Shown here: positions 4,518-10,076 of the stretch, one piece after another
Numbering within the stretch: the stretch's first letter is position 1
How the letters are laid out: every line of letters begins with the position of its first letter
From: Nanohaloarchaea archaeon B1-Br10_U2g1
Lineage (GTDB): Archaea; Nanohalarchaeota; Nanosalinia; Nanosalinales; Nanosalinaceae
Length of the DNA stretch: 58,675 nucleotides
Reading direction: 5' to 3'
Assembly: GCA_001563875.1 (NCBI GenBank)
Contig: LKMN01000003.1
Span: 1-58,675, forward strand
Program-made: the position numbers and the translations under genes
The notes under the pieces: model-generated
What the model was told of the DNA's origin: nothing
Seen by the model: the letters and a program-made list of their open reading frames with translations, nothing else
The model's database searches: none

Positions 4518-5528
4518 ATGCAGGAAAAACAGTTTATACAGGAAGGCGCAAGGAAAGTACGTCTACACGAGAGACTTCAAGAAGAGCTTGAAGGCGCAGG
4601 ATACTCAAACGCTGACATAGTAAGAACCCCTACATCCACAAAGATAGTTATATACGCACAGAGACCAGGACTTGTGATCGGTAGAGGAGGTTCCCGAATT
4701 AAAGAACTAACAAATACTATAGAAAACGTCTTTGACTTTGAGAATCCTCAGATCGAGGTAAACGAAATAGATAACCCTGACGCAAACGCACAGATAGTAG
4801 CACAGTCAATGGCCTCTTGGTTAGAGAAAGGAGGAAGAGCAAAAAGGGTAGGATACACATACCTTAGAAGAGTTAAAGAATCTGGAATTATCGGAGCAGA
4901 AATCGAAGTAACAGGTAAGATCAGCGGAAACCGTGGAAGAACAGAGAAGTTCTCATTCGGATACGTCAAAAGATGTGGGAACACATCAAAAGAGAACGTA
5001 GATAAAGGATACGCATTAGCAAGAACCAAGCCAGGAGCAATTGGAGTAAAGGTCCGGTTGATGAAAGAGATGCCTGATTTCATGCACAGAGACGTAGACG
5101 TGGAGAAAGAGCTGATGCATGAAACAATAAGTTCTGATGAGACACATGAGAAATCAGAGAAGATAGAAATGATTATCGCTGAAGCTGAAAACATGACAGC
5201 AGGAGAGATAGAAAGAGCTATAGAAGAGCTTGAGGGAATCGGTGAAGGAGATGTGTCAACTTCAGAGGTAAGAAAAGTATTCGAGAAAGGTGACCATGAT
5301 ACAGAAGAGAGTGAAGAAACTTCGGAAGAAGTTGAAGAAGAGGAAGTTGAAGAAGAAACAGAAGATACAGAAGCCGATTACGAAGAAATTGTTTCAGGAA
5401 CTATCAGCGATGCAAAAGATGCATTAAATGAACTGGAGAATCCTGACTATGCAGCAGCACTTGAAGCTGAAAAATCAAACAAAGACAGAAAAACTCTAAC
5501 CCAATGGTTAGAGAATAAGAAAGAATAA
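4518..5528 (+). CDS. rps3: Ribosomal protein uS3 with ~150-aa C-terminal extension
   Basis: KH motif RPGLVIGRGG, KPGAIGVKV; then acidic linker and terminal helical domain. Confidence 0.96.
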   Translation: MQEKQFIQEGARKVRLHERLQEELEGAGYSNADIVRTPTSTKIVIYAQRPGLVIGRGGSRIKELTNTIENVFDFENPQIEVNEIDNPDANAQIVAQSMASWLEKGGRAKRVGYTYLRRVKESGIIGAEIEVTGKISGNRGRTEKFSFGYVKRCGNTSKENVDKGYALARTKPGAIGVKVRLMKEMPDFMHRDVDVEKELMHETISSDETHEKSEKIEMIIAEAENMTAGEIERAIEELEGIGEGDVSTSEVRKVFEKGDHDTEESEETSEEVEEEEVEEETEDTEADYEEIVSGTISDAKDALNELENPDYAAALEAEKSNKDRKTLTQWLENKKE

Positions 5529-6114: not shown

Positions 6115-6648
6115 ATGCCAGGAGCATTATTTCTTGAAGACGACAAAGTCAATCTTAGAACTATTGAGGAGGAAGACTTAGAGTTTCTAAGAGATAATAT
6201 AAACAGTCCTAGAATTCGTACATTTCTAACTGTAAGAAAGCCTCAAAATATGAGCCAACAAAAAAGTTTTTACGAAGAGGTTATCAGCGGTGAAGAAGAT
6301 GTGCACCTGGCAGTATGTGATGACGAAGATATAGTAGGAATCATCTCTCTGGAAGAAGACAGGAAAGATGTCGGTGTAGCGAAAATAGGTATCTGGATAG
6401 GGAAAGATTACCAAGGAAACGGTTATGGTACAGAGGCAGCAGAACTCATAACAGATTACGGTTTCAGCACCTTAGACTATCACAGAGTTATGGCCCAGGC
6501 TTATGAATCCAATAAGGCGTCACAGAGAATATGGGAGAAGCTTGGATTCACCAAGGAAGGAGAGCTACGCGAACAGATCTACAGAAACGGTAACCGGGAG
6601 AACGCATATGTTTATGGAGTTCTAAAAAGAGAGTGGCTGGAAGAGTAA
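6115..6648 (+). CDS. GNAT N-acetyltransferase, RimJ/RimL-like
   Basis: IGIWIGKDYQGNGYGTEA acetyl-CoA motif, NKASQRIWEKLGF.KEG.LRE. Confidence 0.9.
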   Translation: MPGALFLEDDKVNLRTIEEEDLEFLRDNINSPRIRTFLTVRKPQNMSQQKSFYEEVISGEEDVHLAVCDDEDIVGIISLEEDRKDVGVAKIGIWIGKDYQGNGYGTEAAELITDYGFSTLDYHRVMAQAYESNKASQRIWEKLGFTKEGELREQIYRNGNRENAYVYGVLKREWLEE

Positions 6649-6683
6649 CCCTATTTATAAAACTTGGTTTCGATTATTGTCTT

Positions 6684-6820
6684 GTCCGCTTGAAGTCGGA
6701 CTTTGAGCCTGACAGCCTTTTGTCTTGGTTGTAGGTTAGAAGGGTTCGATACTTCAGGCATTGGAGAAAAACCTCGTATTAAGTCTGAGTTGTTTTTCCA
6801 TGTGCCTGTTGTCAAGTGGT
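6684..6820 (+). ncRNA. Candidate structured non-coding RNA (three-way junction, ~134 nt), identity unknown
   Basis: TTTATAAA at 6654; closing stem 6686-6693/6812-6819; arm 1 6695-6750; arm 2 6755-6808; G-U pairs favour + strand; U/G-rich unlike flanking A-rich coding DNA. Confidence 0.65.
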
Positions 6821-6867
6821 TTAAAAGATTTACATACGATTTGAAGACTACGAAGAAGGTGTTGACC

Positions 6868-7170
6868 TTGGCAAAACAAGAACAAGAAGAGGAAAAAATT
6901 GAACAGTCGACAAGCATAGAGTTCCCGACTAGAGGCAGTACTTTCGTCGGAACCGTCGAATCAACAAAGATGGAGAAATCAGCAACGGTAAGATGGGAGT
7001 ACAGTCAGAAAGTACCGAAATACGAGAGATTCGAAAGAAGAAACACAAAAATAACCACTCACGTCCCTGAAGATCTAGAAGTGGAAGAAGGAGACAGAGT
7101 CAGAGTTGCCGAGACAAGACCTATCTCAAAAACCAAAAGCTCCGTAATAACAGAGGTTCTACAGAAATGA
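6868..7170 (+). CDS. rps17: Ribosomal protein uS17
   Basis: TRG..FVGTVES.KM.KS, KYERFERR, AETRPISKTK; likely TTG start at 6868 after AAGGTG. Confidence 0.93.
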   Translation: MAKQEQEEEKIEQSTSIEFPTRGSTFVGTVESTKMEKSATVRWEYSQKVPKYERFERRNTKITTHVPEDLEVEEGDRVRVAETRPISKTKSSVITEVLQK

Positions 7171-8941: not shown

Positions 8942-9454
8942 ATGTCAGAAAACGTAATGAAACAGATCTACGTCAGCAAAGTTACAGTAAACGTTGGTAT
9001 AGGACAAGTCGGAGAAGACGTAGAGAAAGCAGTAGATCTCCTAGAAAAACTAACAGGTAAACAACCTATCAGAGCCGAATCGAAAGAATCAGCAAAAACA
9101 TTCGGGCTCAGAAGTGGACTTAACATAGGAGCTACAGTAACACTAAGAGGAGAAGAAGCAAGAGATTTCGTTGAAAAGGTTGTACCTGCGGTACAAGAAA
9201 TCAATGCAGGATCATTCGACGGAAATGGAAACTTCTCTTTCGGAATATCAGAATATATCGATGTACCAGGAATCGACTACGATGCAGACATCGGTATGAT
9301 GGGATTCGAAGTAACAGTAAACCTAGAGAGACCAGGTTACCGTGTTAAAAGAAGAGACTACAAACCAACAGAGATAGGTAAAGAACATATTGTTTCAGAT
9401 GACGAAGCACAAGGGTTCGTTGAAGAAGAACTCGGAATAGAGGTGGTAGAGTGA
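8942..9454 (+). CDS. rpl5: Ribosomal protein uL5
   Basis: [36 protein letters not shown]. Confidence 0.96.
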
Positions 9455-9686: not shown

Positions 9687-10076
9687 ATGCAGCATGATAC
9701 ACTAAGCGACGCATTATCCTCGATAAACAACGCAGCTAGGAATGATAAAGAATACGCAGAAGTCAGTCCTACATCCAATATAGTACAGAATGTCCTCCTG
9801 AAACTCCAGGAGGAAGGATACGTAGGAGTATTCGAACTAGTAGAAGATGGAAAAGGAGGCAAATTCAAAGTAGAGGTACAGAACACTGTAAACCAGTGTC
9901 AGCCCGTGAAACCGAACTTCTACGTAAAAAGCGACGAATACACAGAGTGGGCTAAAAGATACCTACCAGCAAGAAACTTCGGAAAACTCATCGTAACAAC
10001 TCCACGTGGAGTCCTAACACATGACGAAGCAGTGGAAGAAAACGTAGGAGGAAAACTCCTAGGATACGTCTACTAG
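9687..10076 (+). CDS. rps8: Ribosomal protein uS8
   Basis: DTLSDALSSINNA, DGKGG, YLPARNFG, GGKLLGYVY. Confidence 0.96.
   Translation: MQHDTLSDALSSINNAARNDKEYAEVSPTSNIVQNVLLKLQEEGYVGVFELVEDGKGGKFKVEVQNTVNQCQPVKPNFYVKSDEYTEWAKRYLPARNFGKLIVTTPRGVLTHDEAVEENVGGKLLGYVY

Follow-up and report, generated by a model that had tools for sequence, protein, structure and literature searches.

What is the structured segment that lies in the 220-nt gap between a GNAT acetyltransferase gene (6115-6648) and rps17 (TTG start, 6868-7170) in the ribosomal protein operon of this nanohaloarchaeon? The window analyzed here is a stretch of 58,675 nt, contig C18 in a 26-contig, 710-kb assembly (G000) with a completeness of 96.75%, and its DNA was present in salt-lake and soda-lake metagenomes. 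Genes are arranged here in the order L29, SUI1, GNAT, the gap, S17, L14, L24, S4e, L5, S14, and S8. An initial annotation had described a Y-shaped RNA with its own promoter in this gap and had offered three readings of it: a divergent 5S rRNA, a new class of non-coding RNA, or a switchable leader of the S17-secY operon. The start codon of rps17 was selected by its Shine-Dalgarno spacing. A coding extension of rps17 into the gap, along an in-frame ORF reaching up to 6703, was rejected because it is absent from the same-genus genome G001. The features used below are listed here; core bases carry the E. coli numbering of 16S rRNA helix 21.

6654-6661, + strand: TATA box of the leader promoter, TTTATAAA, read in the sequence, with a promoter-like box at the same place in relatives.
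6688-6759, + strand: helix-21-like hairpin, the proposed S8-binding form, consisting of a lower stem (6688-6693/6754-6759), the core, and arm 1; based on the isolated fold and on covariation in 37 sequences.
6694-6698, + strand: 5' half of the core, AGUCG, equivalent to E. coli A596, G597, U598, and the next two bases.
6747-6753, + strand: 3' half of the core, CGAUACU, which holds A640, the bulged U641 and A642, then C643 and U644.
6712-6732, + strand: apical stem-loop of arm 1, ACAGCC/GGUUGU, with a U-rich loop containing a conserved UUGU; 93.7% paired, compensatory changes in 6 of 6 pairs.
6755-6808, + strand: arm 2, from the minimum free energy (MFE) fold, with the base CAGGCA (6755-6760)/UGCCUG (6803-6808).
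6812-6819, + strand: 3' strand of P1, UCAAGUGG, from the MFE fold; it competes with 6752-6759 for the 5' strand 6686-6693.
6820-6827, + strand: second TATA-like box, TTTAAAAG, a putative internal promoter of rps17.
6857-6861 and 6868-7170, + strand: Shine-Dalgarno sequence AGGTG, and rps17 from its TTG at 6868 to the stop at 7170 (Pfam Ribosomal_S17, E = 1.3e-22).
9687-10076, + strand: rps8, seventh gene of the operon (S17, L14, L24, S4e, L5, S14, S8), whose product is the proposed ligand (Pfam Ribosomal_S8, E = 1.6e-21; neighboring families found in that order).

The elements named in the initial annotation were confirmed at the level of the sequence and its predicted fold. A TATA-like box TTTATAAA claimed at 6654 and a second one, TTTAAAAG, claimed at 6820 were both read there, the stem P1 (CCGCUUGA/UCAAGUGG, 6686-6693/6812-6819) was present in the MFE fold, and both arms of the Y shape were recovered as the MFE fold of 6686-6819. 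On the + strand, this segment folded at -54.3 kcal/mol compared to -32.4 ± 3.8 kcal/mol for 200 shuffled sequences (z = -5.79), none of which was as good. The signal is strand-specific, since the reverse strand folded poorly (z = -1.62; 12 of 200 shuffles as good). The structure goes far beyond chance, given its conservation in 37 sequences that show compensatory changes. Inside arm 2, an A-rich strand, GGAGAAAAACC (6763-6773), lies opposite a T5 tract (6793-6797); its GAAAAC motif is conserved in relatives, and the base of arm 2 reuses the 3' strand of the lower stem. A small additional hairpin is found between the start region and the core in many relatives (L042-L082); there is none in G000.

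A promoter-like CC(C)TTTT(T)AAAG or TATTTATAAA box was found at the equivalent site before the element nearly everywhere among the relatives, and the usual archaeal spacing would place the transcription start at about 6679-6686. As a separate observation, 14 of the 27 tRNA genes of G000 have TATA-like boxes that start 23-40 nt (mostly 31-40) before the mature 5' end, which would leave only very short tRNA leaders at these 14 genes.

To establish the distribution of the element, 43 loci were taken from the 42 of 50 genomes of the family in which S17 was found. Three loci end at contig ends, one of which (G022) retains the 3' half of the core where it breaks off, and 40 untruncated upstream regions were left. 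The element was located at the same place in 37 of these 40 regions, in 17 of the 20 genera having an rps17 locus, and it was not found upstream of rps17 in G003, G015, and G013. The bin G057 contains two S17 copies on two contigs, with the element at each. A covariance model of the hairpin gave a single match per genome, always before rps17, in 31 of 49 other family genomes (two matches in G057), one match only in the whole G000 genome, and none in 20 genomes of four sister families; this run used stricter filters and missed the most divergent genus, g20. In the sister families, rps17 follows an Rpp29-like gene within about 45 nt (4 genomes checked, 3 families), so the leader is an insertion specific to one family of Candidatus Nanohaloarchaea. 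Among the regions scored as lacking it, G015 (L052) carries, about 30 nt ahead of the rps17 Shine-Dalgarno sequence, a minimal CAGUCGAAACUG hairpin that resembles the g20 leader core minus its upper stem, and G003 retains the promoter and a degenerate remnant of the element.

Is the element a 5S rRNA? It is about the size of 5S rRNA (RF00001) and shares its three-way-junction topology, and canonical 5S was not found in the G000 assembly, in G001, or in G019. However, the element has neither sequence nor model similarity to it. With the 5S covariance model (RF00001, at least 38 bits), no match was obtained at the gathering score anywhere in the window, nor even at E ≤ 10 within 6550-6950. A search for canonical 5S elsewhere, which the initial annotation had proposed as a check, was informative only in the relatives: canonical 5S was present in 36 of 41 related genomes above the Rfam cut-off. 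Many of these genomes have the element before rps17, among them G016 (two 5S copies), G017, G009, G007, and G006. In the whole G000 genome, neither 16S nor 5S rRNA genes were found; the missing 5S is uninformative because 16S is missing too, the rRNA genes being unassembled, and rRNA-based arguments are impossible for G000. In addition, covariation favors another fold over the Y shape, as described below. The probability of a highly divergent 5S rRNA is thus practically nil, and the element is removed as a "missing 5S" candidate.

Other known RNA classes were considered at the same locus. Rfam detected four tRNAs only in the whole window, and in 6550-6950 at E ≤ 10 it gave three chance-level matches of 11-15 bits. 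A K-turn, H/ACA, or C/D RNA was rejected, since the snoRNA-family matches were among those at chance level (gathering scores of 45 and 100) and the bulge geometry was unfit. RNase P RNA was considered because the Rpp29 gene usually occupies this spot and because RNase P RNA (RF00373, E ≤ 1) and Rpp29 (PF01868) were not found in the 96.75%-complete G000 assembly. The Rpp29-like gene lies directly before the leader in most relatives, and the GNAT acetyltransferase takes that slot in G000. RNase P RNA also had no match in the same-genus G001, and it was present in the relatives G016, G002, and G011. The absence could be a loss in the genus, divergence, or an assembly gap. A tiny RNase P RNA was nevertheless rejected as an identity of the element, since the element is also present in relatives whose RNase P RNA and Rpp29 are normal.

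Comparative analysis was based on alignment A4, whose 37 sequences align cleanly at their ends. The hairpin helix joins CUUGAAG-UCG to CGA-UA-CUUCAGG, and its lower stem, CUUGAAG/CUUCAGG, is a pairing that the initial annotation had mentioned only as an alternative. Of the two alternatives named there, CUUGAAGU/ACUUCAGG turned out to be the best-supported helix of all, and GUCCG/CGGAC was not kept in a same-genus relative. Over the 37 sequences, 82.0% of the hairpin cells were paired compared to 74.3 ± 1.0% in shuffles (0 of 500 reached this value), and partners slid by 1-3 columns were only 35-48% paired. Compensatory changes on both sides were observed in 9 of 15 pairs, with a covariation score of 0.300 vs. 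0.172. The values listed above for the apical stem of arm 1 refer to the 21-22 sequences with a long arm; in the 15-16 others, arm 1 is reduced to a few pairs or a tetraloop.

Folding of the 5' 79 nt alone gave the same hairpin with its 2-nt UA bulge (-33.5 kcal/mol, z = -4.66). RNAalifold returned the helix-21-like pairing with 2 sequences and with 9 short-arm sequences; the MAFFT 3' ends were misaligned in these runs, which have no bearing on P1. On comparative grounds, the CUUGAAG/CUUCAGG hairpin, not the Y fold, is best supported. A conserved RNA structure with covariation was found consistently upstream of the operon that encodes the proposed ligand, which is the pattern of an r-protein autoregulatory leader.

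The reason for proposing S8 as that ligand lies in the core. In AGUCG...CGAUACU with the bulged UA, all letters but two were identical in 37 of 37 sequences. The pairs A596-U644 (6694-6753) and U598-A640 (6696-6749) and the next two pairs (C-G and G-C) were present in all 37. The bulged A642 (alignment column 72, window position 6751) was A in all 37, and it was unpaired in the isolated hairpin fold. The two varying features were the G597-C643 pair (6695-6752), found in 31 of 37, and U641 (6750), found in 32 of 37. An S8 site is defined by the (G597-C643)-U641 triple, by an invariant A642, and by the A596-U644 pair (PMC4176348). G597-C643 and U641 of a helix-21-type S8 site are thus present at the sequence level only, at which a base triple is invisible.

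In 7 relatives from 7 genera, 16S helix 21 reads ...AAGUC(C/U)GCUG...CAG(C/U)GGAUACUG..., and the core letters AGUC and GAUACU with the bulge are identical to it. In E. coli, S8 represses the spc operon by means of a helix-21 mimic located at the start of rplE (PMC3616713). Neither the S8 resemblance nor the conserved status of the "alternative" pairing had been seen in the initial annotation.

The match has exceptions. In 31 of 37 leaders (GC in 18, AU in 13), the base at position 595 forms a Watson-Crick pair with the next 3' base, and it could be left unpaired in a few sequences only (e.g., G063, G010, and genus g20; by eye). In rRNA, A595 is an unpaired base that forms a triple with A596-U644 (PMC4176348), and the base before A596 is unpaired in the 16S of the relatives, as the register requires. 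Positions 597 and 643 are C opposite C in 6 of 37 leaders (genera g19 and g21), and U641 is replaced by A, G, or C in 5 of 37, comprising four g20 leaders and one g21 leader (G042). The 16S rRNAs of G019 (g19) and G020 (g20) keep the canonical letters; the helix-21 part of the g21 16S (G021) was not recovered. In genus g21 (L053, L064, L055, and L070), C597 is mismatched with C643 in the hairpin and can pair with a distal-strand G in P1 (GCUGAGAC/GUCUCAGC), so that the S8 site might be assembled across the three-way junction there.

A relaxed S8 descriptor had 3 matches in the 710-kb genome compared to 0.8 expected from shuffles. The two matches outside the leader, on contig C2 inside a 404-aa ORF and on contig C5 at an ORF edge and not in rRNA, look like chance. 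A covariance model of the leader, run against 16S loci, did not match helix 21. Because the core is short and the descriptor matched 3 times against 0.8 expected, we do not rest the argument on a match in one genome. Its weight comes from exactly these letters being fixed over 17 genera amid covarying surroundings, in an operon that encodes S8.

These data also bear on a reading in which the same conserved leader or small RNA has another function, binding a different protein of the operon or acting via its Y fold, and the S8 likeness is coincidental. The common core is only about 10 nt long, with about 0.8 chance descriptor matches per genome. The A595 feature is not kept, three genera deviate at the triple positions, helix 21 contains nothing equivalent to the arm-1 UUGU loop or the arm-2 GAAAAC strand, and the Y fold is the predicted ground state. 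All of this would suit such a reading. However, the invariant nucleotides are exactly those defining the S8 site, including the 2-nt UA bulge in the 3' strand between A640 and C643, and the stems around this invariant core covary freely. Moreover, S8 is encoded downstream, and no different r-protein site with these letters was found in the literature examined. We therefore regard a function unrelated to S8 as fairly unlikely.

P1 (6686-6693/6812-6819) and the arm-2 base (6755-6760/6803-6808) both exclude the helix-21-like lower stem, and the Y shape is predicted to be a competing fold that breaks the S8-like site. Duplex energies of each strand with its own partner were compared to those with partners of other genera, using one genome per genus in 18 groups (the second G057 copy was treated separately, and the G052 row was mis-anchored). 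The lower stem gave -11.65 kcal/mol with its own partner vs. -8.60 ± 0.54 with others, P1 gave -10.80 vs. -8.69 ± 0.49, and the arm-2 base gave -10.95 vs. -8.67 ± 0.44 kcal/mol. Across genera, both partners of the competing fold thus follow the genome they belong to (z = -4.3 and -5.2). About half of the genomes have a strong P1, and genera g7, g11, g12, and g19 have a weak one. P1 was 86.3% paired in 10 long-arm sequences preselected for it, and its covariation was barely above shuffles (23 and 22 of 500).

In full-length ensembles, the A596-U644 pair had a mean probability of 0.03 and exceeded 0.5 in 0 of 37 sequences, and the Y fold was the predicted ground state of the full leader. Forcing the S8-like site cost 0.9-14 kcal/mol, and 1.4 kcal/mol in G000. 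A site that forms first during transcription and is later lost unless held is what a switch would look like in such predictions. Of the three readings in the initial annotation, the switchable leader for the S17-secY operon is the one favored by the evidence. The analysis shows conservation, covariation of both folds, a core identical to that of helix 21, and the operon context.

A further possibility is that the G000 element exists as a stable small RNA in its own right, about 110-135 nt long. It would have its own promoter, end at the T5 tract or before the second TATA-like box, and act in trans, for example as an S8 decoy or an assembly helper, with rps17 transcribed from the second promoter. 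TATA-like boxes do flank the element, and GGTTTAAAAG-like boxes were kept at the second site in 20 of 37 genomes. A run of at least 4 T, as in the T5 tract of G000, faces the conserved GAAAAC strand of arm 2 in 23 of 37 (G016 by eye). A conserved 266-nt intergenic RNA has been reported in a nanohaloarchaeon, in passages that do not give its locus (PMC7002113). However, 17 of 37 relatives lack the second TATA-like box, and for that reason the element must be the rps17 leader there and is probably co-transcribed with rps17. The T-run is also missing in 14 of 37, and the element occurs only before rps17, once per genome. We consider an independent small RNA quite improbable. The "new ncRNA class" of the initial annotation holds in that the element belongs to no Rfam family, and fails in that it behaves as a leader rather than a free-standing gene, with no second box between it and rps17 in those 17 genomes.

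In the 20 genomes with a second box, G000 included, there may be a second, possibly unregulated promoter that could bypass the leader. Just past this box, 6838-6854 is a near-copy of the leader 5' strand (GAUUUGAAGAC vs. GCUUGAAGUC), and similar copies of the 5' strand occur in G009 and G012. When the S8 fold was forced, the freed 3' strand of P1 paired with the 6838-6854 copy in the predicted structure. The promoter and 5' strand may have been duplicated.

The step at which a switch would act was approached through the rps17 start region and arm 2. Predicted accessibility of the Shine-Dalgarno sequence and start was the same in both folds (0.51 with the S8 fold forced vs. 0.49), so sequestration of the Shine-Dalgarno sequence was rejected as the output. 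The expression platform is not evident, since forcing the site left this accessibility unchanged. By analogy, the arm-2 T-run could be an archaeal termination signal; a poly-U after another archaeal leader has been suggested as a possible termination signal (PMC7247131). Attenuation at the oligo-T was rejected as a universal output, because the T-run is found in 23 of 37 only.

Taken together, we consider it probable that the element is a bistable, S8-binding autoregulatory leader that mimics helix 21 and is new for Archaea. It would be a cis-acting 5' leader of the S17-L14-L24-S4e-L5-S14-S8... operon. Its first 75 nt or so would fold while being transcribed into a hairpin that mimics 16S helix 21, the primary S8 site, having in common with it a G-C pair flanked by a bulged U and A, an A-U pair below, and a U-A pair above. 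When S8 is in excess of free 16S rRNA, it would bind and lock the hairpin. Otherwise, the later strands 6803-6808 and 6812-6819 would invade the lower stem, giving the more stable Y shape and destroying the site. The choice of fold would set the expression level of the operon, and candidate outputs are early termination at the arm-2 oligo-U tract, a change in mRNA stability, and an effect on translation. In this scheme, binding by S8, the direction in which it would regulate, and the step affected are inferred.

A more specific form of this proposal is a kinetic S8-sensing switch. S8 would trap the nascent mimic, with refolding into the Y shape otherwise, and the outcome would decide whether the polymerase stops at the arm-2 oligo-U or reads through into the operon of about 15 genes. 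We hold this specific form to be doubtful. If true, it would be the first archaeal S8 leader, among very few cases of regulated transcription attenuation in Archaea, and invented within a single DPANN family. In either form, the pair of a ~75-nt hairpin and a 129-aa protein would be a compact RNA-protein system, and the 37-sequence alignment is a ready seed for an RNA family. As a side observation on other proteins of this locus, S3 (4518-5528) and L24 (7569-8285) both have long, very acidic C-terminal extensions that end in a near-identical motif, PDY.AAL.AEK..KDRKTL...LENKKE, and the L24 proteins of G001 and G016 carry the same acidic-extension motif.

Feedback by r-proteins through rRNA mimicry is well established in bacteria. 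To our knowledge, only a handful of such cases are known or predicted in Archaea (L1, with S15, eL15, and L4 as candidates), and we know of an S8 mimic only from the E. coli-type spc operator. The archaeal leaders, L1 of Methanococcus and the S15, eL15, and L4 candidates, resemble the present element in placing rRNA-mimicking structures before r-protein genes (PMC7247131; for L1, PMC3616713). They differ in that none is for S8 and none is placed before rps17. The terms uS8, S17, rpsH, and "helix 21" are absent from the main text of that study (Eckert and Weinberg 2020). No description of an archaeal S8 leader was found in the literature searched, a coverage that leaves out most subscription journals.

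Compared to 16S helix 21 itself, the leader has identical AGUC/GAUACU letters and an identical 2-nt UA bulge, likewise set between a lower and an upper helix. Helix 21, however, leaves the A that precedes A596 unpaired, its lower stem differs in sequence, and its upper part is unrelated to the arm-1 loop.

The closest known system is the S8 operator of the E. coli spc operon, which is likewise an mRNA hairpin in an S8-encoding operon, with the internal-loop core of helix 21 copied and the distal stem variable (PMC3616713, PMC4176348). The hairpin of that operator overlaps the rplE start codon, in the third gene, and directly blocks translation of rplE (PMC3616713). In contrast, the element described here is a 5' leader in Archaea, at least about 110 nt before the first start codon (rps17); it ends at 6819 and has no overlap with the start of rplE (L5), which lies at 8942. 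The E. coli mRNA site keeps the A595 triple (PMC4176348), whereas the element has no equivalent of the unpaired A595. Unlike the E. coli operator, the element is embedded in a competing Y-shaped fold. Most E. coli r-protein regulatory RNAs are "narrowly distributed" to Gammaproteobacteria, as stated in the title of Fu et al. (PMC3616713). Since the element and the E. coli operator share no alignable sequence beyond the core, the element would be an independent invention. If so, the copying of helix 21 arose separately in halophilic archaea with tiny genomes, at a different operon position, and with the S8 mimic wrapped in two mutually exclusive folds that have both left an evolutionary trace.
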